In this document: positions 2,296-50,023 of the stretch, piece after piece
How the letters are laid out: each line of letters opens with the position of its first letter
How positions within the stretch are numbered: the stretch's first letter is position 1
DNA from: Girardia tigrina
Taxonomy: Eukaryota
Length of the DNA: 54,130 bases
Assembly (NCBI GenBank): GCA_001938485.1
Contig: MQRK01200470.1
Span: 1-54,130, forward strand
Direction of reading: 5' to 3'
Position numbers and translations under genes: made by a program
Notes under the pieces: model-generated
The model's database searches: none
Told to the model about the DNA's origin: nothing
What the model saw: the letters and a program-made list of their open reading frames with translations, nothing else

Positions 2296-2975
2296 TTTTA
2301 TAAAAACAACCACATTTTTCAAGCATTACCAATGCACTAAAAAGAGGAAAATAATTTTTTTCTAGACATGTGCGAAATTTTATACCTAACCAAAAACGTG
2401 GGGCGGATTTCTGAATTACTGCTATTAGTAACTGCTATTTCCTCTTTACTGCTTTTTAGTAACAATCTATCATTTCTATACCCCACGTTTTTGGTTAGGT
2501 ATAAAATTTTGCACGTCTAGAAAAAAAATTATTTTCCTCTTTTTAGTGCATTGGTAATGCTTGAAAAACTTGGTTGTTTTTATAAAATTTTTTTTTTATT
2601 AATAATATTATTTTACTATTTTTAGTTATCATTTAGGAATTCAAATCTTTCGATTGATTTCGAATAACAGAAATGATAATAAAACCAAAATAACAAAGTT
2701 TTATTTTAATAAAAGCAAGTTTTATTTCAAGATAATTTTTAAACCTAATTTTAATACTTCTACACTCAATTATCACTTGATTTTCACAATATTTGTTCAA
2801 TTTATTAATTTTTTCCGTATATCCGTAAAGTAAATGTTTTAAAATATTGTATTGTCATCGGAAGCAAGCCTGTATAAAAAAATTCAGCTCAATTGGATGA
2901 CTGAAAGTGGTCGAAAAATCAATCGCAAGATTTTTTCCAGACAAGAAAGCAAGCTAATAAAAATGTGGTAAAAAA
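2296..2975 (-). mobile_element. Rearranged copy of the HINE/DINE-1-like family at 39647-40420
   Basis: 2847-2975 is the reverse complement of ~39647-39792 (5' end). 2296-2403 and 2481-2586 are inverted copies of the 3' end seen at 40304-40390. Confidence 0.7.
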
Positions 2976-3328
2976 CAACCTGAATTATCAAATTCAAGCA
3001 TTAAAAATTTCAAAACAATGAAATCTTTATTTTATTTATCAACATTTATCAAATAGACATTTTAAGATGATTTTGTCAAAGAGATTTCGAAGGATTTTCT
3101 CGTTCTCAATCTAAAAACTTTCTAAATTTCCAAAATACAATCTTAATGAAGAAATAAAGACTCGAAAGTTGTCAATATATTATATTTTAATGATTTTTAA
3201 TAATCAATATGACAAAAAAATATTTAAAAGTAAAATTTGTCTTTTTACTAATATTATTGGACATCTAAAAACATCTACTTATATATAATATATAAATATA
3301 CTTTGATTAAAGCTTTTTTTATATAATT

Positions 3329-3370
3329 ATTGGACATGTTTCGATGTTTACATACATCATCTTCAGCAAT
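3329..3370 (-). ncRNA. Minimal type I hammerhead ribozyme (intact core, CUGAAGA variant)
   Basis: Reverse complement reads AUUG-CUGAAGA-U-GAUGU(AUGUAA)ACAUC-GAAAC-AU-GUC-CAAU. It differs from the + copy only at the variable N of CUGANGA. Confidence 0.8.
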
Positions 3371-3535
3371 TTCAATACTTAAAATTTTTAATTAAAATAT
3401 TCTTTTTGCCATTATTACCCAATAATGCTTTGATAAATAATAATAATTAATTTTTTGGTTACCTTTTAAAGTAAATATATCTATTAAAATTGTATTATTC
3501 AAACAATTCAATATTCATATATTAAACATCCGAAA

Positions 3536-3577
3536 ATTGCTGATGATGATGTATGTAAACATCGAAACATGTCCAAT
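3536..3577 (+). ncRNA. Minimal type I hammerhead ribozyme (intact core)
   Basis: AUUG-CUGAUGA-U-GAUGU(AUGUAA)ACAUC-GAAAC-AU-GUC-CAAU. Stem I AUUG/CAAU, 5-bp stem II, palindromic stem III ACAUGU. Predicted cleavage after C3573. Confidence 0.8.
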
Positions 3578-4415
3578 AGTTGTATAAAAAAAGCTTTAAT
3601 CAAATTATATTTTCGAAATACTAAACTTGCGTTCACAAGACTCAATATAATATATAAATAATATAATTTTAAAAACATTGTTTAAATGTGCGAAGTGTTT
3701 TATTTCAAAACGTATGTAAAAATTAATATAATAAATTTTGACTTTTTTAAAATTTATTTTTCTAAAAATTACCATCAAAAATATTGAAGAAAGAGTAATA
3801 TTTTTGTTAGAAATATGTTTTAATGAATTTTTGCTTTGTGGGAGGAAGCATTTACAGTCAGTTCAGTCTCATTTTGTCTGCATCGAAAATTTCCTTTCAT
3901 CTTATTTCTACATCAAAAAGTTATTAAAATAAAAATTAAAAATGATAGTTGACAACGATGCGGCAAAAGAAAAATGTCGAAATCCACAGAAAAATGAATC
4001 TCTAATAGGAAGAAACTTGTGATAAAAGTATATCAAAAGGAAAAATTAATTGAAAAAGAGTTATACGAGAATGAGAAAACTTAAATAATATGATCAATAC
4101 ATAGTGATAAAAATAATTGTGAACAATATTTTCGAAAATGTTAAAAATAATCACAAATGAGTTAATTATTTTGCTTATTTGTTTCTGATAAAATAATCTG
4201 TAATGCTTTAAACATTTTAAACATTAAATATGTAAATACATTAAATTAAATTATAATATTCTTTATTAATATCACCTCACACTATTGAATTTTTGGTATT
4301 TGAAGGTTGAATTGTTTTTGTGTATGTTTATTTTGGTGATTGACAAGCAAAGAAAATAGAAGAAAGAAAGGGCAAAGAAGGAGTTTCGAAAGAAAATATT
4401 ATTATTATATTACTA

Positions 4416-4615: not shown

Positions 4616-5590
4616 GTTCCGCAGACGCTGCTTATTTTTGGCTTGTAATTTCATATTAGCCGGAGTTATTATACATTGCTTAAAAAAATAGAAAAATTAA
4701 GCCGTGTAAAAGCAAGAAAAAAATTTGATCACAGCAAACTTTGAGTGTTACGCAGATAAAAATCTGGGCTTTTATATACGTAATTTTTAACAACTTTGTA
4801 TTATTGTGAACTTTGCTTCGTCATTATTTTTGCCAGCCCCCAGCTCATTTTCAAATAATAATTATCAAAATCAACGGGCAATCGAAAACTCGACTTTCAC
4901 TTCTAGACTCAATAATATCAAGAAAGAGCAACATCTTCTAGAAAGATGGTGAGTCAATGGAAGAGAAGTCTCAATAGAAGTAACCGCTGCTGTTAGTAAT
5001 CATTGCACAACGTATCACATAACCGCCCCACAGGAAAATCTAACTAAATATAATTCGGAAAAAAATAATAAATAAATAAAAGTTGTGTCAAAATTAAAAT
5101 TGAATAAATAAAGGGTGTTTCAAAATTCACACAAGAAGTAATTTTGATAGCAAACACAGGTTTATAATTAAAAATTGTAAATTTTTTATTGATTTATATA
5201 GTATACAGTATAGGGTTATGTATGGAATAGCATATCGAGTAAATGACCTCCGCGACTTTGCTGGGACATACACACTCTTGTTGAAATTTCCCATGATTGT
5301 TTTGCATAAATGTGGCTGATTTTCGTTGATATAGCGCTCAATTTCCTCCTTCAAAGCGTGAGTGATCGTGGGCTTATAGAGATTTGTGCCATTTGTGCGG
5401 TAAAGTATTGCCAAATAAAAAATGCAGCGTGACAGCTGATAGTTCAGGGTTATTAAAAATGGAATGCTACACAAAAGAAGTACACTGTGCAGTGAACTGG
5501 CCGTGTGTGCGTGTCAGTCTGACAAAAGGACACATACACACACGATGAGCATTACGCAGATGAAACTCTGGGCTTTTATATACATAATGA
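4416..5590 (-). mobile_element. Non-autonomous Helitron-like element
   Basis: Minus-strand 3' end has the hairpin CCGTCATATATGACGG (4428-4443) a few nt before CTAG|T. Putative 5' end TCATTATGTATATAAAAGCCCAG at 5590, with a near copy at ~4750-4783. The 5' boundary is less certain because the flanking base is not the canonical A. Confidence 0.65.
5110..5380 (-). mobile_element. 3' fragment of a rosa/DD41D-like Tc1/mariner transposon
   Basis: YKPTITHALKEEIERYINENQPHLCKTIMGNFNK resembles the C-terminus of DD41D/maT-type transposases. TIR-like AAGGGTGTTTCAAAA at ~5111. Confidence 0.6.
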
Positions 5591-10548: not shown

Positions 10549-12625
10549 ATGATAATATCACATTCGTGGAAAGATGCCAAGAAACAGAGTTGTGATAAGA
10601 AGGAAAAGAGCAAAAATACGATAGAGACAAAACGAATAATTCATATTGGGGACAAAGTGTTGATTAAGAAGAAAAATGCTACAAAGGAAGAAGTTCGGTA
10701 TATGGGTCCAGCCAACAGTAAAAAATCGAAGACATGAATGAAGTTATGAATTGGAGTTAGAGGATGGTAGAATTTTGGTCAGAAATGTTGAATGACTAAA
10801 GCCATATTAATCGATGGAGATGTGAAGAATATTTATTACGTTGATGTTTTTGTGTTGTTTGAATTTTGCATGTGGATATGGAATTGCGTCTCTCCTAATC
10901 AGATGGATGATCAATATTTAATTTCTTATAATCTGAAAATAATTTATTCAAATTTAGATTTAATATTCAAATTTTTAATTCATTATTTTTGTAAATTTTA
11001 AATGACTTTATTAATTTTATTATTGTAAATTTGTAAATACTTACAAAATCGAATTATATTTTTAAATGATAATAAAAGTAATTTTATTTTAACCAATAAC
11101 ATTTAAAGTAAATATTAGGTGTATAACTTAGTTTTTTGGATTTTCTAAGAGATGGTGTAACCTTTGTAATAAGCATTATTTTACAGTCGTACGTACAGAT
11201 TTTTAAATAGCTGAAATCGAGGCATTAAAATTAAGTAGGTCATTGACTTTAAATGCGTCATAAACCTATTTTTAATCACGTTTTAGCATGACAACTTTCA
11301 TACCAACAAAACAGCATTTGCGGGAATCACTACTTTTTTGCTTTAATCAAAAGAAAAAAGCTGCAGACAGTTTTCGGCTTCTTGAAGAAACTTATGGTCA
11401 ACATGCACCAACTCAACAGAGTTGCGAGAACTGGTATAAACGTTTCAAAAGTGGAGATTTCGACGTAAGTGACAAAGAGCGTTCCGGTCAACCAAAAAGA
11501 TTCGAAGATGAAGATTTGGAATCATTACTGAAGGAAGATTCTACTCAAACAGAGAAAGAGTTTGTAAAACAGTTACATGTTACTCAAGCAGTCATACGTA
11601 AACGTCTACATGCTATGAAAATGATTCAAAAAGAAGGAAAATGAATACCACATGAATTGAATCAAGCCAACATTGAAAGTCGATTACTGATATTCAATTC
11701 ATTGCTTACAAGACAANNNNNNNNNNNNNNNNNNNNNNNNNNNNNNNNNNNNNNNNNNNNNNNNNNTATTCAATTCATTGCTTACAAGACAACGAAGATG
11801 GTCGTTTTTGCATAATATTGTGACTGGAGAGGAAAAATGGATTTATTATGTTAACTCTAAACGCAAGAAATCGTGGGTTCATCCCAGCGAACCGTCTACG
11901 TCAACAGCAAAAAGAAACATTCATGGAAGAAAGGTTATGTTGTGCATTTGGTGGGATCAGAAAGGTGTACTGTACTATGAGCTGCTGAATTCGAATGAAA
12001 CTGTTAATGCAGAACGTTACCAACAACAGTTAATGAAATTGAACGATGCATTGAAGGAAAAACGTCATATTCCAGCCAACAAACAGCGCACAGTGATTTT
12101 GCTCCATGACAATGCTCGGCCACATGTCACAAAACAAGTAAAAAAAAGTTGGAAGCACTTAAATGTGAAATTCTACCGCATGCTTCCTATTAACCAGATT
12201 GTGCCCCATCAGATTATCATCTGTTCCAATCAATGCAAAGCGCTCTTCGGGACCAGCACATCAGAAACTACGAACATATAAAAAATTGCTGGAACAATGG
12301 ATCGCATCAAAAGACCAAAACTTTTTTTTCGATGGAATTCATAATTTGCCTAAAAGATGGTCGAAAGTCATAATTAACGATGGAAAATATTTTGATTAGA
12401 ATAAAACTTATTATGTCATATAAATAAACTTGTCTGTTCTGCAAAAAAATCCAAAAAACTAAGTTATACACCTAATATTTTAAATAAAATATATTGTTTC
12501 AAGTTATTTCAGATTTTGGATGAGAAATATTAAGCTTTGAGTGAAAGCATTAATACGGATTGTCATAGAGATGATTCAAATTGTGAATGTAATAAATCTT
12601 CTATCAAATGTGAGTTCTCTTAACA
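10549..12625 (+). mobile_element. 3' end of a Gypsy family A element: integrase C-terminus, PPT and 3' LTR (10821-12625, split by mariner)
   Basis: IGDKVLIKK...RYMGP...SYELELEDGRILVRNVE (GPY/F-type module); purine-rich GATGGAGA then TGTGAAGAATATTT; LTR ends GAGTTCTCTTAACA. About 442 bp once the mariner is removed. Confidence 0.8.
11115..12475 (+). mobile_element. Full-length inactivated mariner (Mos1/mauritiana-like)
   Basis: About 30-bp TIR TTAGGTGTATAACTTAGTTTTTTGGATTTT and TA TSDs. Transposase 11288-12399 has RFKSGDFDV, K*IPHEL, TGEEKW (first catalytic D replaced by E), HDNARPH, a frameshift and Y*PDCAPSDYHLF. Confidence 0.95.
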
Positions 12626-18818: not shown

Positions 18819-20287
18819 CTGAGTGACAAATTTTTTAAAACACTTGTATTATTTAAGAAATAAAAGAAAGTAAACATTATTTTGAGTAATGAATGTAGAG
18901 AATCAAATAGTTTTGTCAAGTGTCATGTTTAGTATAAATGGAAATGGATAAAGCATTTTGTTTAAATAAATCATTTGAATTTATTTATTATGTAAAAATT
19001 CAAAGTCGACATATTTTTTTAAATAGTAAGATTTTTTATATTATTAAACGATTTGCCCACTTTAATTGTTATTATTTATAAATTTATAGATATTTTCTTA
19101 AATTCTAGACAGAAATGAGAAGTAATTTTGAAAGACATTTGGTAAGGAAGTGGAAAACGGAAGGGTTGAGTTATTCAGAGATTTCTAGAAGATTATCTAT
19201 TTCTATAAATTCGGCAATTAATCTTTTTCGATATAATAAGAAACGATGTCTCAAAAATTCAGGACCGCGACAAAAATTAACAAAAAATATGAAGCTATCA
19301 ATTAAGAGGACGATAGAACATTTGCAGTCAAATTTTCAAAAAATTAATTCGTCCAAATTGATTGCAGAATGTGATTTAAATTGTTCAACTCGGACAGTAC
19401 AAAGATATCTGAAAGCTGCAGGTTACAAATATCAAAAAATTAAATCAGAAATATCGTTATCAAGGAAGCAGAAGAATGATAGAATTGGTCATATTTCTAG
19501 ATGGATTAGCGAAAACCACAGTTGGGAAACGACAATGTTTAAGGTTGAGAAAAGATTCACATTGGATGGGCCAGACGATTGGGGAACATATGTACAAAAA
19601 AATCAAAAATATATTCATCAAAAGCGACAATGTAATGGGGGTAGTGTTATGGTCTGGATGATGGTTCTGCCTAACGGATTTCTTTCATACAAAATCATAG
19701 AAGGAAAATTCGGATCTAAAGATTATAAGCAATTATGAATACATAATGCTATTCCTATCATAAAACTTAACTGTGGTGATAATTTATGAAAAAAAGTGAA
19801 ATTTCTGTGCTTAATTGGCCTGCGAAAAGTCCAGATTTAAATATTACTGATAACATGTGGAAGAAAATATCCGACATTGTTTACGATGGCCCTCAGTGTA
19901 AAAATTAGGCAGAATTATGCTTATCCATCAAAAATGTCATACACTTGATTAACTCATCTAGAAGACATATTGTTATCGAATTGTATAGGTCAATAAGAAG
20001 TCGGCTGTGCAAGATATTAAAAGTGAATGGAAATCTGTACAACAGTTTAATGTCCTAGAATAAATGTTACTGTTTTAAAAAATTTGTCGTTTTTAACTAT
20101 GCATGAAATTTAATTTTTCAATAATTTTTTTACCACAAATGCAATTTAATTAGTGCAAAATTTTTATTTACTTTTTCTTCAATTTTTTTTTACTTCAAAT
20201 TTAAAATAACACATAAAAATTTTAATATTTGTACATATCATTACGATATTAACTAAAGTGTAAGTGTGTTAAAAAATTTGTCGCTCA

Positions 20288-24149: not shown

Positions 24150-25560
24150 ATCATTTATATGATTTTAGGAACCATTTTTTTCTTTCTTTTCCAATTTTTT
24201 ACAACGTTATTTTATTATATCAATATTGCATTTTATAAGTATTTTTGTTAGTATATATGCTCTTGCGTAAATTGAATTCTTTAACGGATGACTTTAGCTG
24301 AGAATTCAATTGGTTCGGTCTCTTCATCAGAATCAATCTCTAGAACAATTGTATCATTAACCATAACAACCAAATCTGCTTCATCGTGTTCTTCATCAAA
24401 CATTAGTTCCCCAATATCTGTCTCAGTCAAACTATCGAAACCTTCTCCAACTATTTGTGCCAACTCAACAATCTGAGAATATTCATGTTCCAATGATTCA
24501 GTCGTCTCATGTTCAACTACACCGGTCCATATGTTTTTCCAACAGGCTTTTAACGTTGATTTCTTAATGTTGAGATATGACAATGAAACATTTTTAATGC
24601 AATCCAATATTTTATATTTTTCCAGGTATTCATTAATGTCTAAGATTCATCGTTTTCCATTTATCTAAAACATACTTGAAGGTTTGCTTTATGTACAGTG
24701 CTTTAAAGGTTGAGATTATCCCTTAATATTGTGGCTGCATTAAGGAAGTCATATTCTTTGGTAAAAATTAAACATGCACATTTTCATGTTGGAAATCTTC
24801 AAGATGGCCGAGTGCATTGCAAAATAACAAAAGAACTTTAAATGGTAATCCCTTTTCACTAAAATACTTTTTGGCATCAGGAATAAAAGAATAATGAAAC
24901 CATTCTTTAAAAAGGACGGCAGTAACACATGCATTCTTATTGACCATCCAATAAACATGCAGGTTTTTGACATTAATTCCTTTAAACGCACGTTGTGTTT
25001 ATTGATTTGTTAATAAGCAATGGTTTTATTCTATGATCACCTGAAGCGTTCCTATAGAAAAGAATTGTAATGCGATCTTTCGCTGCTTTATGGCACTAGC
25101 TGTTTGTGAACTTTAGCTAAATAGGTTCTCTTTGGGATATTTTCCAAAAGAGCACCGTCTCGTCGGCATTGAAAACCTGGTGAGCAATGTATGAATTAAC
25201 AGTAATGATTTAAGCTAATTTTGCTGGATATTCTTGTGCTGCATTTACATCACCAGATGCAGATTCACCTTTCATTGTTAGATTATGTAGAGATTGTCTT
25301 TTTTTGAATCTGTCGAACCAATCATAACTAGCTGAAAACGTCGGTTTCTTGTCAGCTGAAGAAGTAGAGGGTGACTGTTCCTGAATTTTTTCATAAATCT
25401 GCAAAACCTGATTTGTGATTGCTTTCATATCAATTGGTAACCGTTTTTGAGTTTGGTCATCTATCCACAACATTAATACCTTTTCCATCACTTCAATCGA
25501 AATATTCATTCTTATAAAATTTGTTTTTGATTAATATCACACTCCATCGTAACTTTAAGA
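24150..25560 (-). mobile_element. pogo/Tigger-like DNA transposon, decayed transposase
   Basis: CENP-B-type HTH (MEKVLMLWIDDQ...FSASYDWFDRFKKR...GESASGD), VFNADET, HKAAKDRIT and STLKACWKNIW, with many frameshifts. TIRs not located. Confidence 0.88.
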
Positions 25561-28188
25561 AAGTCAGCGTTATATTCGGTGTATAAATTGTTGAGTCAGA
25601 TTGGAAATACAGGATGTATAGTGTGTATAGTGCTTAGATATTTAGATAAAATTTATATAAAGAAAGTTTATGGTCTTCAAAAATCTAATATCAGCCAAAA
25701 CTGAAATAAATAAAACCATAATCTACGGCTAATATGAAAATACATACATATTATGGCAAACGAGAAACCATGAAAATGAAATTATGTTAAAAGTACCTTG
25801 TAAATTTGGGTTCAAGTCTTTATAGAAATGTTTTGGTTTTTTCCTTTAATGCTTTATAATAAACTTATTATGTTATTAGTAAATATTTAATTGCAAAATG
25901 GAGTTGTCAAATTTTTTTTGTGAAATTTTCCCTTCTACAAAAGATAATAAAAAAATCTGTTGACCAAGCAGAGTTTTACCCGCATAATGAATGGATATAA
26001 ATAATTATTTTTTTTTAATTTATCAGTTAATTAACCTATTATATTTTATTTGTCAGTTAAAACAAAATAATTTCATTTTAATATTTTATTGTTGATAAAT
26101 GATAATGCTTGTGGTGCTCTGGTCAAGCAATAAAAAAACAATTAAAAAAAATCTACTTTTGTTTAATTAAATTAAACAAAAATAATTACTGAATAAAAAT
26201 TAAAACCTTGGAATTTTTCAAATAAATAAATGTTTCAAATAAAATCGAGGTTTTAATCTTTGTTTCACCGTTTGATTGATCCACAAATTAAACCGTTCGG
26301 TTCGGACCGACCGACGCCTTACTCGAGATATCGGTACACGGACGAAACACAAATCAATTTACCGATGAACCGATCATCATCCGATACGGGATCGATTACC
26401 AAACGGAGAGCGACACATAACAGGGAACCGCCACGAGTCGGTCGCGGGACCGATGTTCACTGGACCCGATCAGTACCCAGCCACCGTCGAACTGACACAC
26501 CGACCTTTCCGGGCACCGAGTCCAATACAATTAAGAGTCGCTGGTCGCCGCCACTCGGTCCTGCAGCCAATACATCATTGTCGAAGGTCCAAATGGAACT
26601 TCAAATAAATATTATCTTTTATCTACAATTTTTATAAAGGTTTTGTATTTGAAACTTGAAAAAAATAATGTTTTTATTTCGCGTTTTTATTTTTCAATAA
26701 TTAAACAAAATAAATTATCATTAAAAATAATTTTTTTAATTACTAATTTAATTTTGTAATAACACTTGTAATCATTTCTAATTTATTTGTTTTAAATGGA
26801 TTAAATGATATGAAGTAATATTTGCAATTAAATATGTAAGTTTTAAATTTAATAAAAATACAACAAAAGATTATGTTTTCATTTTTTATTATATTAATAA
26901 CGTAAAATATATTATATTTATTTACAGATTATATAAGATTTATTACTCAAATGAATCCAGCTGAATTTTATGACATTATAATCACTAAATATACTTAGCG
27001 AACAAATTAAGTATTCGTTTAGTCTAATATTTAAAATGTTTAATTCATATAAAATATAAAAAAATACTATTTTATAATTAAATAATCGATAAATAATTAT
27101 TAGAAAAATCGATCACAGAAACAAAGGATAAATTAATTAATGGATCAAAACATGAACTATTGGATTGTAAATTTTGGACCCTTTGGAGTACAGTAGGAAA
27201 TTGTAAAAAATCAATTTTTTAATTGTTTGCTCTTTATTATTTTAAAGTAAAAAAAAGATTTTAAAGATTTTAAAGTAAATCTTACGTGTATTAAACATTT
27301 GTAAAAACAAATGGCTAAAGTAGGAACTCTGAAAGAATTTTAAAGCTCCTCAGAGTTTTCAAAATACCATTAGTCATTTCAATTGAATGACTATGTTACC
27401 ATGGTGCAATGATTACAAGAATATACTCCTATGCAATAATATAATAAAATATAAATAAAATACTTATGCAATAATATACTCTCTAATTTCGATTATAATA
27501 CTCTTTCCAAATTATTTTTACTACCTCTAAATCATTCATTTAATTGACTGTAAATTAAAGTTATTTATTGTTAGAATCTTTTAAATAACGGATTTTTTAA
27601 TTTTGCAAAAATAAAATTTTATATCTTTAACATATATCTATCATTATACAGTAATGATTTTTTCATAAAATAAAGTTCTTCAATGAATTTGGTAGTGTTA
27701 CTGTCTTATTTTTAAGCACCAGGCTACGGTCTAAGTGCAGAGAAAAGCAGTTTTCAAAAGCGGAAATTGACAGATAATTTTGAACATTAGTCAATTAGAT
27801 ATCATTAAGTTTTAATTTAGTTTTTAAAAAATGGACGTATATCGAACTAAACAATACGACTCTTGTCTTTGAATGTAAAAAATATTCTCAGTTCAGGGAT
27901 ATACATTGACTTCGGAAGTAGAAAAAAAATATGATATCGAAATCCAGGTATTTAATAGATGCTCCGGAATTGGTACCCCTGATTATGACATATACACGCT
28001 ATTTAAAATAAATATTTCTTTCAATAATAACCAAGAAATTAGGATGGAAAGTACAATTAGATGGAAAGTATACTCCCAAAAAGTAGTACCCTGTCACTAA
28101 TTGAATTAAAGATTTATAAATTTTATAGCTCCTGAACATAATTCATAAAATTATCTACCTAAAAATTAATATTTGATTTTTTATTCAG

Positions 28189-28314
28189 AAATTACGGATT
28201 TCGGGAAGTGGCAAGCGTACGATGTCGCTGATATGATTAAATCCTATTTTCGATCTCTTCCAGAATGTTTGATGACAAATAAATTTTCCAATACCCTTAT
28301 ATCTATCAAAACGT
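28189..28314 (+). CDS. RhoGAP-START (DLC1/STARD13/cv-c-like) gene, internal exon A (RhoGAP domain)
   Basis: Not in the ORF track. Acceptor ttattcag, donor gttagt. Reads ITDFGKWQAYDVADMIKSYFRSLPECLMTNKFSNTLISIKT, matching the DLC-family 'AYDVADMLKQYFRDLPEPLMTNKLS' segment. The terminal T joins AT of exon B to give Tyr. Confidence 0.92.
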
Positions 28315-28430
28315 GTTAGTTAAGTTAATGAAATTTTTTATGTAATAGAACTTTGATTTAAACAAAATTATTTATTTTAATTTAATATAAAAATGTTATA
28401 ATAATAAAAAATGCTACAATAGGAACTCAA

Positions 28431-29086: not shown

Positions 29087-30049
29087 AATTCTTATTAATT
29101 TTTCTTTATAAATTGTACATAATACAAAAATTAAATAAATCACAATAAACCCACGTATATTTTATATCTGCAAAGGTTTATTCTTTATATATTCTCTTCG
29201 TAATAATTACTGGTAGTAATCTGGATATTTGAACATCTTAATATGGAGTGTGGTTTAGATATGTCAAATGTTTTTACACTATCAAGACAAGTTAAGCTTT
29301 CCGTTTTGTCTTTTTGGAATTTGGTTACATTGTTCTCATTTGAAAATAAAAATAATTCCGCGTTTATAGAAAGATTTTCAAATTTAAGTCAGCGTGAATA
29401 AGGTTAAATGTATAAATGTTCGAACTATAATAATAATAATAATTTCTAGGCTCTCAAGAACTGGTTTGAAAAATTTTGAATATAATGATTATTTGAAATA
29501 TTAGTTTTTGTATTTTCAAAAATTAAATGTCATTTGAAATTATTAATCAAAGCGATGTAATAAGTGTGAAGTATTTTTTCCAACGAAAATTCACAAAATA
29601 AAACTCCTTAATAATAATATAATTTTTTGCGGCTTAGGATCGATAATAATTTACAAAAAAGATGTTTCTCAAATAATTTTGTGAAACTGTATGTTATTAA
29701 GAAAAGATTTTGTTTAAATACTGCCGATAAGGTGAGAAATTTGAACAGTGTCAATATAGAAATAAATAATTGTAAATTGTGTTGAAATAAAAATTTCTCG
29801 TCAATGACTTTTTTTATTCTGATTCAAGTGATGTACCTACTATATATTCATTTAATGTTTTTTGAAAAAATATTTGTTAAAGTTCTTTTTAAAAGATTAT
29901 TGTTGAACATGCTTTGATCAGGATATTTAATCCTCTTTAGCAATTAATATTTTGATAAAATCTAGAGTATATATGAAAACCAAAAAAAATATTGCCAATG
30001 ATGTTTAATGAAAACCAAAGACTAAGAACAATTTATTTTAATATTAAGG

Positions 30050-30415: not shown

Positions 30416-31287
30416 TAGAATAAAATACCGAACAATTTGTTTTTTTTATCCTCAGTTTAATTTTAGAAAGAGATCATTAACAAAATCTATTCTTATTTTC
30501 TAAGTTTTTTTTAAATTAAATTCCCATGAGCGACTTAAATAAAATATGAATTTGGAAGATGGTAAAAAGAGGGTTAATAGAAGACTTAAAGTTGAAAAAA
30601 GTATGACTTTTGAACAGCGTAATGGGAAGAACTCATTATATCTAAGGATCAATTTATTGTCATTATGTTAGAAAAAATAACCTTGAACTAAGGTAAAAGA
30701 TCGAGAAATGCTTTCTATAAATCTTTGAAAATATTTTATAAGATATAAATGATACTATGATAAAATTTATCATTGTTTAACCGCTAAACAGTTTTACCCG
30801 AGCGCCGTTGGAGCAGCCCACATACTAATGTACTTACTTCTCCGAGTGTTACTCGGACAAAGGTTTTTGCAAGGTTTATACGAGTATGTGCATGTATAAT
30901 TGACTCCCATTTATTTCTTTCGACATTATGCTATTTACAACATTTTATTCAGTTTTCACAGTGGTTTACTGGTGGGTACATAACGAATTATTATTATGAT
31001 ATTTTATTGGTCTGTTAAGTGGTTAAGATAAAAATTTTCCATCAACATAACATAGGATAAGGAAAGATCTTTGAAATCAAAATAAGAAAATTTATTGAGT
31101 CTAATGATATTTCAAATGAAAAAAAAACTTCTGAAAATAATTAAATAATTAGATCTAAAATGAACCTTTTTTGAAAACAGAAGAACTAAGTTTTTTATGA
31201 GTTTTTATTTCATGTAAAAATTATTTTAATTTAATGCAATTAATAATTTTATTATGAAAAATGGAAATAATATAATTTATTTCAAAG

Positions 31288-31418
31288 ATATTCCTGAACA
31301 AAACTGGTTTGAAGCAATTCAATGGGTGATCATTAAGTTGCCAGATGAAAACCGATTGGTACTGCAGAGTCTGTTATACTTTTTAGCGGATCTAACAAAA
31401 CATTCAAACACTACACAA
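31288..31418 (+). CDS. RhoGAP-START gene, exon B (RhoGAP domain)
   Basis: Acceptor ttcaaag, donor gtactt. (Y)IPEQNWFEAIQWVIIKLPDENRLVLQSLLYFLADLTKHSNTTQ matches DLC-type 'LLPDENREVLQTLLYFL'. Ends in phase 0. Confidence 0.92.
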
Positions 31419-31559
31419 GTACTTGAATTTTTTGTTACGTTCAATTAAGTATAAAAATAAAAGATAATTCCAATAAATAGTAGATGCTTGTTGTATAATA
31501 ATAATTATATAAAATATTATTTTTCTGAACTTAATAAAATCAACTTTTAATGTTTTAAT

Positions 31560-35035: not shown

Positions 35036-35147
35036 GAGTAATATGCTTTCGATATTCTGAAACAGTTATTATTATTTACGCATTTTATATTTAAATAAAT
35101 TTTCATTAAGTGAATTATTTTATAACAAGTATTAAATATTTTTACAG

Positions 35148-35342
35148 ATGACATCATATAATCTTGCAGTCTGTTTGTCTCCATCTCTGTTTCATTCGCC
35201 CCATTTAATTAACTCGACATCAATAAGTCCTATTCGAATGAGGAAAAGTATTCATGGTCCTGATCCAAGAAATTTAGAAGATCAAAAAGCCACGCATCAT
35301 TGTTTGAAATTTATGATTGATCATGCGGCATCACTGTTCCGA
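35148..35342 (+). CDS. RhoGAP-START gene, exon C (end of RhoGAP domain)
   Basis: Acceptor tttacag, donor gtaagt, 195 nt. MTSYNLAVCLSPSLFH...KATHHCLKFMIDHAASLFR matches DLC 'MTPTNLAVCLAPSLFH'. Confidence 0.94.
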
Positions 35343-36819
35343 GTAAGTCAAAATTATTATACATATTTTTATTGTTAAAAATATTCATGTTTACATAAAA
35401 CACTAGAATCAGATTAAATAAGTAATTTTATCAATACGAAACATTTAGCTTCACTACATATATAATTAAACAAATTTATGTCTCTTAAAGATTCAGAAAC
35501 TATCGTACCGATTCGAAACCAAATTTAGACACCAAAGAGAAGCTTTCTGAAAAAAACCTTTATTAAAATGTGTAGTGATCTGATAATCGATGGAAAACAA
35601 AAAAACTGACTTTTGTTTAATTTAATTAAATTAAAAATTTGTTAAACGTGGAAAATTTAAATTTTGTAATTATGTCGCTAAAAAATAAATGCTTTATAAA
35701 AATAACCGATTTCTGATTTTCTATCTCAATTTTTTAAATTGTAAACGAATTAAATCGAGCGGACCAGAGCTGCCGCCTCATTGTTCAGCTAATCGGCATC
35801 CGGACAACCCACTTGGACGCTTCGAGTGGACCACCGAGCCATTTATTGGGGGAGTTGCATTTGTCTGTAAAATATTCTGGGATGATTAAATGTGTGTTTT
35901 TGTCGTTTTATTGTTTCTATTGTTAATTCATTTTTTGTAAACTTTGTTGTTTGTTGTATTTTTTTGTTTATTGTTGTAACATTATTTCTTTCATTTTTTT
36001 TAAAAAGGATCTCTTCACTTCTGATATCAGTTTAAAAAAACTGGTTTATTCTCCCAATGAATACACTAATAAATTGATCGTATGAACTTATTCGAATAAA
36101 CCGATTTTTTATACTTTTATGATATAAAGAATGCAAAAAATAAACTTTTACGGTATCAATAAAATATATTAATACTACAATCATTATTTATTTATTATTA
36201 TTTTATCATTATTAAAAGTCCTGTTTTTTTCTTAAAAAAATAAACCAATTAAAACTGTCTTCAATAAGCCGGGATGGAAGGAATCCGACACAGTTAAAAT
36301 TGTTTTTGGATGAAAATAGCTTCAACACCCTGCAAGATTTGAATATGTCAGTTCGTATAAAAAAGGAAAGTCCAAATTTCACAAATACGTGAGTCTTGAA
36401 TATTGAAGACACAACTGTTCCGTCACAGACAAACAAATATCATATTCTTGGAACGTTAATAAATTAATCTGTGGTAACCAATAATAATGGTATTGATTAA
36501 TTTATTATCGGTAATTTAATGATTATTTATTTACAAATAATTATTATAGGTTAGAATAAATAATGCAGAGGAAAATATAACCCATGATATCTTTCTTCAT
36601 CTATCTTTGATTTTTTCTGTCTTCTTTAATTTATCTTCTTTAGTTTCTCTGCTTCTTAAAATACATAACCACAAAAAAATGATAAAAAATAATACAAATT
36701 ACATTTTTTAAATCACACTCATAACTGCGCCTACAAATAAAAGCAAAAAAATAATAAAATAAAAATAAAAAAGAAGATGCGGGTTAGCACAGTAATATTT
36801 GAATTTTTACGCCAAAAGA

Positions 36820-44305: not shown

Positions 44306-45518
44306 CTTAGGCTGTCCAAAAAGTCCTCAGGTGGCCTTTAAAAACACACTAATATTTTACCAAATTTAACCAAATTTGGACTGAATATTATTCAGACTGT
44401 CATAAATACTGTGTTAAAATTTCAAAGCATAAAATTAAAATAAAAGTAAAATTTTGTTTTATTAAAGTATTGAAATTTTAAAAGTGCAGCGAATTCAAAT
44501 CAAGCGGATTTTAACAATGGAACCAAATAAATGTTGCCAACGTTTTTTTGTTCTAAGTCAAACTAAAAGAGGATTCTCTGCTTCAGAAATTTTTCAGCAA
44601 ATTCAGCAGGCATGGGAAGACGCAAATTACCCAGCACTGAAAACTATTCAACAATGGTTGACTGATTTTAAAAAAGAAATGTGGACGTCCTTCGACGATT
44701 CATCAAGAAGTGGCAGGTCGTCATTAATAGACGATGAAAAGATTAAAGCAGTCAAAGAAGTGATTGATGAAGCTCCAAATGCGTCTTTGCGTTATATTGA
44801 AAATGAACTTTCTTTAGGCAAAAATACAAAAAAAAATACTGATAAAAAATCTCTTGTTTTCGTAACCGTTACTTGCAACAAACGCTTTAATGTAAAAGCA
44901 CTGCCATATGGTACCAAGATTGATTCAGAGGAGTATGTGAACTTTGTTCATGATACCGGTGAAAAATGGCGGAAACTTAGATCTAACAGCATCAATCTAA
45001 AGGAACTTAAGTGGTGGCATGATAAAGAAACAAATCTTTTTTTGAAAGAAGAAAAATTGAAAAAAAATATCAATCGCCCTATAGTCCAGATTTTATTCTG
45101 TGTGACAGATTCTTGTTTTCAGAAATGAAGAAAAGTTTTAAAAATCATGTTTTCAAATCACATTAAGAAATTGAAGAAGCTTGTAAATTCTTTTTTAATT
45201 CTTTACAAAAGAAACATTAAAAAATCAACTAGATAAACTTTTGAACTATTGTCAGTTGGTTATTGACAACAATGGTGAATATGTTGATGCTTGAGAAATT
45301 TTTAAAATATTTTTTTAAATAAATTTTTAAATTCGCTGCATCTAATTTTTTTTGTTGGTTAATAATATTATTTTTTTGGTAAGTTTCAAATTTTATGCTT
45401 TGAAATTTTAACACAGTATTTATGACAGTCTGAATAATATTCAGTCCAAATTTGGTTAAATTTGGTAAAATATTAGTGTGTTTTTAAAGGCCACCTGAGG
45501 ACTTTTGGGACAACCTAA

Positions 45519-49254: not shown

Positions 49255-49624
49255 GTCATAGCAATAGTTTGGTCAACGATAAAGTTACCACAACCATTCA
49301 AAATGTTAATATCTCAAGTTGTTATGATCAAGGATAAGTAGTATTCATGTACCATATTTATTAAATCTTGTAGAATACGAGCGAAATAAATAAAATAAAT
49401 AATTATTCAAAGAAAATCAAAAAATGAATGTTCGACCAGATTAAATCCAGGTATTAAAAACGTCGTCCAGATTCAAACATTATTAATTATTAACTAAAAA
49501 ATAATAATAGAAAAATTAAAGCAGGCAATTTTCATTGGTAAATAAACTTTTGTTTATTTTAATGAATTATATTAACATTATTTATTAATAATTACAAAAA
49601 TTCATTTGTCATTTTGCTCAACAG

Positions 49625-49978
49625 ACACGAATGGGACCCTGAAATCGGAGTCATGCATATCAAAAGAGAAATATCAGACTCTGTAGACATTTGTTACATG
49701 GAAGTCGCCAGCAATCCTCCGCAAAGCAAGCGACAAATGAATTTGATCAGAGGATGCCAGCGCAATATCGATGGAAATACTAATGTATTGGTTACTCAAT
49801 CTGTTGATGATAATTTGCCGACAATTGATAAAAAACCATTGAAGCATTTATCATTATATGATCAAGAAACTGATACAGAGAAAAATATTATTAATGTTAT
49901 TCAAGATGATGTGATTATTGAATATTTTCCTAATTCCCAGAAGTCTCGGATCAATTGGTTGTCTAGAATTGATTTAAA
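49625..49978 (+). CDS. RhoGAP-START gene, exon E (START domain)
   Basis: Acceptor ctcaacag; AG+A gives Arg. Reads RHEWDPEI...DICYMEVASNPPQSKRQMNLIR...VLVTQSV...IIEYFPNSQKSRINWLSRIDL. Donor gtatcg. Confidence 0.9.
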
Positions 49979-50023
49979 GTATCGTTTATGATTGTGTTAT
50001 CACCACTGATACCTCTCTTTCAG

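Follow-up and report, generated by a model that had tools for sequence, protein, structure and literature searches.

Locus and anatomy of the insert

The window, i.e., the whole 54,130-nt stretch of Girardia tigrina DNA that was analysed, carries three RhoGAP matches (28170-28316, 31230-31445 and 35136-35375) and one START match (49566-49988), all on the plus strand, according to a Pfam search of 201 of the 235 listed plus-strand frames. This RhoGAP and START gene may encode a DLC/STARD13-type protein. Strict scanning of the first 27 kb for splice sites returned three candidates at two loci, among them a candidate internal exon at 4837-4948 (+) with AG and GT ends and one open frame. Pfam gave no match for this candidate and no family for 40 minus-strand frames between 143 and 8896 (of 136 listed up to 27 kb), while no homolog of the host gene was recovered among 190 candidates in a search that started from one exon. 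Because the candidate exon is without a Pfam match, a location of the insert described below in an intron of the RhoGAP gene is plausible but no firmer than that. Remnants of DNA transposons (Mos1-type HTH, Tc3-type HTH and DDE_3, Tc5 HTH, and HTH_32) are present at 11276-11641, 19109-19905, 25210-25527 and 44466-45125, and a MITE-like long inverted repeat with arms of about 110 bp was seen by eye at about 2295-2590.

The insert lies between two copies of an exact 16-bp direct repeat that cannot be extended (Table 1). This 16-mer occurs twice in the whole window, and 0 of 200,000 random boundary pairs 362 nt apart shared a 16-mer within ±10 nt, with draws that contained N or hit the site itself being skipped yet still counted in the 200,000. 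The flanking direct repeat described in the first-pass annotation was confirmed, being exact at both independently defined edges of the insert. Inverted arms of 79 nt (3294-3372 and 3534-3612, 95% complementary) are separated by a 161-nt spacer and differ at four sites (sense positions 3544, 3579, 3582 and 3605). Within the left arm, 3299-3372 reads as the reverse complement of 3534-3607 and lies immediately next to the direct piece; it comprises a hammerhead and the first 13 codons of the parent ORF. Based on sequence comparison, this left piece was identified as a partial copy of the same pLTR in inverted orientation and lacking the tail, and the direct piece (3369-3644) as the junction of ORF end, pLTR and ORF start of an element encoding RT and GIY-YIG. 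Both edges of the insert are ambiguous because the AT-rich target resembles the template. On the left this concerns 5 nt, as 3294-3298 of the left TSD copy also extend the inverted arm, and on the right 2-8 nt, with identity to the relative P0133 (see below) continuing to codon 28 at position 3652, inside the right TSD copy. The earlier description of the element as lacking an ORF holds insofar as no long ORF is present; the insert does contain the last 8 codons and stop as well as the first 25-28 codons of the parent ORF. A stretch of 23 nt at 3242-3264, located 73 nt upstream of the left arm, is 83% like this arm (11 nt exact) and is either a chance similarity or an older remnant.

Table 1. 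Coordinates of the features of the insert and its putative target-site duplication (TSD).
Feature	Position	Strand	Basis or remark
Left TSD copy, 16 bp, AT only	3283-3298	+	direct-repeat and inverted-arm comparison
Inverted 5'-truncated pLTR fragment (copy of sense 3534-3607)	3299-3372	-	arm comparison
Minimal type I hammerhead motif, minus copy	3329-3370	-	C3 at 3366; predicted cut after 3333
4-nt microhomology at inversion junction	3369-3372	.	common to inverted-arm end and direct-piece start
Last 8 codons and stop of parent RT/GIY-YIG ORF	3369-3395	+	same C-terminus as L003 ORF
Direct pLTR, non-coding, ORF stop to next ORF start	3396-3568	+	collinear with L003
Minimal type I hammerhead motif, sense copy	3536-3577	+	C3 = 3540, C17 = 3573; predicted
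First 25 codons of parent ORF	3569-3644	+	protein identity to P0133
Tail at direct end only, 37 nt (32-45 given ambiguous edges)	3608-3644	+	absent from inverted arm
Right TSD copy, 16 bp	3645-3660	+	its first 2-3 nt also match L003

Hammerhead motifs

A descriptor scan of the 54 kb recovered exactly two putative hammerheads, which are the outward-facing cores, one per strand, proposed earlier. The same descriptor gave 2 matches in 200 order-3 Markov-simulated windows. Because a single sequence was duplicated to give both motifs, they count as a single event. The plus-strand motif consists of a core at 3540-3546, an extra nucleotide at 3547, GAAA at 3564-3567 and C17 at 3573, with a helix II of 5 bp closed by G-C, a palindromic 6-nt helix III and a helix I of 4 bp. 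The start codon of the parent ORF (ATG at 3569) sits in the palindromic helix III. As had been noted, the two copies differ only at the tolerated N, the sole arm mismatch within the motif being 3544 (N7).

The extra nucleotide after A9 (between 9 and 10.1), the G10.1-C11.1 pair, the short helix I and the small palindromic helix III are shared with the minimal hammerheads of metazoan PLEs (PMC4209133), whereas helix II has 5 bp here as opposed to 7-8 in Schistosoma. The same work describes dual minimal hammerheads about 100-700 bp apart on opposite strands, with most scattered motifs tied to truncated PLEs.

Other computational tests added little to the motif. In a six-row alignment three of the five helix II pairs changed on both sides, a weak test because two rows had been chosen by pattern and two were the arms themselves. 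The Rfam hammerhead models, the check recommended in the first-pass annotation, did not detect these motifs: there were 0 matches at gathering score over the whole window, and the three matches at E<=10 within 3100-3800 included no hammerhead family. These three weak snoRNA matches (E 6-6.5) were rejected as chance. Free folding of four fragments of 56-86 nt resulted in z-scores of -0.9 to +0.5 relative to shuffles, so folding energy alone gives the motif no support.

A further stretch at 29866-29945 (-) is 72% identical to the arm over 83 nt with an altered hammerhead core; it is a decayed relative of the same pLTR and probably an old PLE relic.

Parent element and copies in the host

Pattern scans returned three loci in metagenome contigs (L001, L002 and L003) and 0 loci each in viral contigs and genome contigs. 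The parent RT/GIY-YIG element that had been suspected was found as L003, which encodes an ORF of 549 aa with an RVT_1 match of 44.3 bits (cutoff 29.6) and a GIY-YIG match just below the Pfam cutoff (E 2e-4, 21.9 bits versus 22.6). GIY-YIG scored 28.9 bits in the relative P0007. Over 288 nt, positions 3369-3656 of the window and the 3' end of L003 share 92.7% identity, and the two copies terminate no more than 3 nt apart. In L003 this common block is preceded by 30 nt that equal the consensus of the loose contig ends at 3369 (see below), and 3369-3395 therefore represents the last 8 codons and stop of the ORF. L001 and L002 have only the hammerhead motif in common with the window, and no long RT ORF was seen in them; their minimal hammerheads (L001:5001-5040 and L002:1293-1332) agree with those of the window in core and helix III, differ in helix II and are embedded in unrelated sequence.

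The 90% protein cluster of the L003 ORF has 15 members, one of which is P0133, an 836-aa protein with 97.8% identity over 506 aa. The first 28 residues of P0133 are those encoded from the window ATG at 3569 (tblastn: 28 of 29 residues, E 2.9e-11). The N-terminal 27-residue peptide produced no score against 60 distant full-length homologs, with shuffles doing better, and it is P0133 only that settles, at the level of protein sequence, the reading of this site as the ORF start. P0133 contains DKG and has no match to the extra cysteine cluster in the form C-x(2-5)-C-x2-C; by the criteria given in PMC8557442 this points to a clade of Penelope/Poseidon type as against Neptune, Nematis or Naiad, an assignment that rests on motifs. 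A scan for SAM-like motifs found none. No loci related to P0133 were detected among 129 genome and 9 viral candidate stretches. L003 and P0133 are from samples other than the genome of the window, and P0133 is known from protein alone. The C-terminal end of P0133 is unlike that of the other 13 listed cluster members and is without their last stretch. The cluster listing names proteins of this PLE family 'hypothetical protein' only.

Contigs of 4 of the 24 listed runs were placed on 2650-4400. X1 (20,223 contigs), from which the window itself may stem, and X2 (15,547) belong to organism A and one study; X15 represents organism A in a different study, and X3 (1,996 contigs) is organism B. Summed contig depth over 3299-3652 was 1.4-2.8 million in X1 and 1.4-2.7 million in X2, compared to 71-503 and 35-267, respectively, in the flank bins 3004-3239 and 3771-4400, where summed depth is not a copy number and overlapping contigs inflate the values. 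Depth dropped steeply at both direct repeats, and X3 and X15 covered the insert and not its adjoining flanks. From these depths we infer thousands of family copies in the host. Among the contig variants listed, none reached 5% at core positions, while loop II and the flanks varied and a helix II variant at 3560 attained 17% in X1. Directly upstream, at 2650-3003, lies another very high-copy repeat, whose summed depth in X1 is 0.85-4.4 million. This repeat and the PLE family are both present in organism B, which fits a relative; no horizontal transfer is claimed.

The unique left flank runs into the insert in X2 record 17 (2950-3319), as does the unique right flank in X1 record 8 (3640-4400). 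No empty-site joint was present among the joints listed from the contigs placed on 2650-4400. X2 record 21 (depth 35, 4 differences) has 45 leading letters that were not placed on the element end, which is a hint, and a hint only, of an empty haplotype.

The inverted arm of the insert stops at 3534-3538, the upstream edge of helix I. Among the joints listed, 5 of 15 fall at 3533-3536, and 4 of the 32 listed pieces begin at 3536-3537, but RNA starts are beyond what contigs can reveal. In X1, X2 and X3, contigs were also observed to skip 35-42 nt within 3493-3536, just upstream of the hammerhead, reflecting either subfamily variants or a hot 5' boundary.

Probable origin of the insert and its predicted consequences

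The insert very probably goes back to one fairly young insertion of an endonuclease-positive Penelope-like retroelement, truncated at its 5' end and belonging to a family with very many copies in the host. The first-pass annotation had named two possibilities, one being a young and very truncated PLE insertion whose 5' pLTR is inverted, and the parent element together with the one-sided tail supports this one. The parent encodes RT followed by GIY-YIG in one ORF, the pLTR spans ORF end to ORF start including the first codons, a 5'-truncated inverted copy is adjacent at the 5' end, and the 37-nt tail falls within the 30-40 bp of the one-sided tails that PMC8557442 describes, along with inverted 5'-truncated copies, as general PLE features. 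The closest likeness is to Pen2a_Av and Pen2_Av of Adineta vaga (PMC3846280), which share the pLTR over the ORF start, the tail on one end, the AT-rich target, the adjacent shorter inverted pLTR, the TSD (putative in the present case) and a parent with RT then GIY-YIG. The Pen2a_Av pLTR holds the first 12 codons, or 22 with its 31-bp tail, and has a 9-bp TSD, compared to 13 and 25 codons, 37 nt and 16 bp here; the rotifer TSDs in that paper are 8-10 bp. Other differences from the rotifer elements are that only 27 nt of the ORF end are kept here, that the family is very high-copy, and that the junction consists of 4-nt microhomology and a 161-nt spacer between the arms instead of a palindrome. 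PAc, the Poseidon of Anolis carolinensis (PMC11167929), similarly has its ORF start inside the hammerhead, an AT-rich target and insertions ending shortly into the ORF at two tail-defining sites. In PAc, helix II is where the ORF begins, and reverse transcription initiates about 111-118 nt into it; in the present insert the ATG belongs to helix III, with the ends about 39 and 76 nt into the ORF.

A PLE protein has been shown to cleave both strands of AT-rich DNA and to extend them, the tail being defined by two internal RT starts (PMC11167929). By analogy, the protein of the present element would cut both strands of its AT-rich target 16 nt apart, and RT would start at two internal sites ~37 nt apart near the ORF start, one per target end. 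Early termination would leave cDNAs of about 276 and 74 nt, which may then be joined head to head via the 4 nt of microhomology, perhaps with two different pLTR templates in use. The use of two templates is suggested by the double copying of 3534-3607 and by the different family alleles of the arms: at 3579 and 3582 the left arm matches L003, and the right arm codes for the residues of P0133. We tentatively regard two templates as a simpler explanation of the arm differences than fold-back copying, and later mutation or gene conversion could also account for them. L1-type twin priming, which yields non-overlapping segments, on a single template stretch was ruled out, as 3534-3607 is present twice. 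Self-priming is the published alternative (PMC3846280), and the steps that produce inverted pLTRs and tails are described as unresolved in PMC8557442 and PMC11167929. Both ends of the insert exhibit 2-8 nt of target-template homology, in contrast to the priming without homology reported in PMC11167929; this homology is possibly chance, the DNA being AT-rich.

The second possibility raised in the first-pass annotation, a tiny non-autonomous ribozyme-bearing family, would correspond to a PLE fold-back derivative of fixed length that moves again as a unit of 346 bp, with an outward-facing RT start at each end. Precedents are available, since pLTRs alone can mobilise unrelated DNA in trans (PMC3846280) and non-autonomous PLE derivatives exist (PMC8557442). 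Depth was high and fairly even over the insert including the junction bin (1.79 million in X1), although copies with the exact junction are not countable from contigs, and the arms display stable differences. The left-arm depth is nevertheless explicable by allele-based placement of short contigs, and the behaviour of contigs at the inversion junction favours the parent-type arrangement. Among the rows listed, the loose end with the best support inside the element directly precedes 3369; it occurs in 39 (X1), 46 (X2) and 15 (X3) contigs with none listed for X15, and in these three of the four runs the contigs continue into the parent ORF exactly at the junction. In X1 and X2, no more than about 0.2% of family depth carries the window allele at 3427 and about 1% the one at 3522, and the 3' ends of other copies in contigs vary (3620, 3625 and about 3647). 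In addition, there is one copy only in the 54-kb window, and the sole metagenome locus of the family (one of the three loci) is parent-type. This reading is thus unsupported, and we consider it improbable.

Still less credible, and in our view very unlikely, is that the insert represents a non-LTR retrozyme, or else a host ribozyme co-opted to cleave RhoGAP pre-mRNA. The motif with intact core on the plus strand, which is also the strand of the RhoGAP-START exons, is of type I, and the family sequence occurs in X15, where unique flanks are missing. Non-LTR retrozymes (PMC7229834; bioRxiv 10.64898/2026.07.22.740005) are similarly small, non-coding-sized and PLE-related and carry type I hammerheads. 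The known ones are head-to-tail tandem repeats with mostly canonical hammerheads and circular RNAs, however, whereas the present insert is an inverted arrangement with minimal-type motifs and fragments of both ORF ends. One inverted pair and no direct-repeat unit was found in 2800-4200, the window contains two motifs, and the intronic position is no more than plausible.

Predicted RNA folds, all of which are equilibrium figures, bear on this reading as well. In its favour, the isolated 61-nt motif would form helices I and II with a probability of 0.86-0.99, but helix III has a probability of 0.0 as a monomer and would need a second molecule (predicted palindrome duplex -4.6). The two motifs are never both sense on one RNA and therefore cannot dimerise in cis. 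As they point outward, any transcript crossing the insert makes the complement first, and in read-through RNA of both strands all hammerhead helices have a predicted pair probability of 0.0. The plus read-through fold reaches -121 kcal/mol with a mean arm pairing of 0.95, as opposed to -61 with the hammerhead fold forced, and a transcript starting at 3380 is predicted to form helix II at 0.26 and helix I at under 0.1. The earlier suggestion that transcripts could self-cleave from either strand is disfavoured by these predictions, in which the read-through hairpin removes the ribozyme helices, and such cleavage appears unlikely. With the hammerheads locked in a 74-bp hairpin, double-stranded RNA would be the likelier RNA consequence of the insert. 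Minimal PLE hammerheads were reported to be uncleaved as monomers with low cleavage as dimers (PMC4209133). Hammerhead cleavage needed protein, was dispensable for in vitro insertion and was absent from RNA-seq read ends in PMC11167929, and siRNAs match inverted Penelope regions in transgenic flies (PMC3681739).

Chance motifs or an inverted duplication introduced by assembly have a negligible probability: the TSD is AT-only, the window holds assembly gaps (1264 N) and Rfam has no hammerhead match, but the arms differ at four sites, contigs from unique flanks enter the insert in X1 and X2 (same study, X1 possibly the source) and the homology to the parent is decisive.

The PLE insertion that we favour is an ordinary, clean example of the published pattern (PMC3846280, PMC8557442). 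Its ribozyme motif was doubled by the backward insertion of part of the element's end, a pattern known for PLEs, and the hammerheads are passengers of the pLTR. If the fold-back alternative were true, the parent's protein would copy a fixed fold-back unit in trans, using either strand, and this unit, with its two pLTR alleles, would seed double-stranded RNA when landing in introns. Such a family, of which no example was found in the literature searched, would be the inverted-repeat counterpart to tandem retrozymes. For the insertion itself, the young, very high-copy family with its two common pLTR alleles would allow insertions with arms from different templates to be counted, and it would also be suited to mapping where inverted arms stop relative to the hammerhead. 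If the two-template explanation is true, allele differences between arms would record two templates per integration and provide a genomic test of the two-strand, dimeric RT model.
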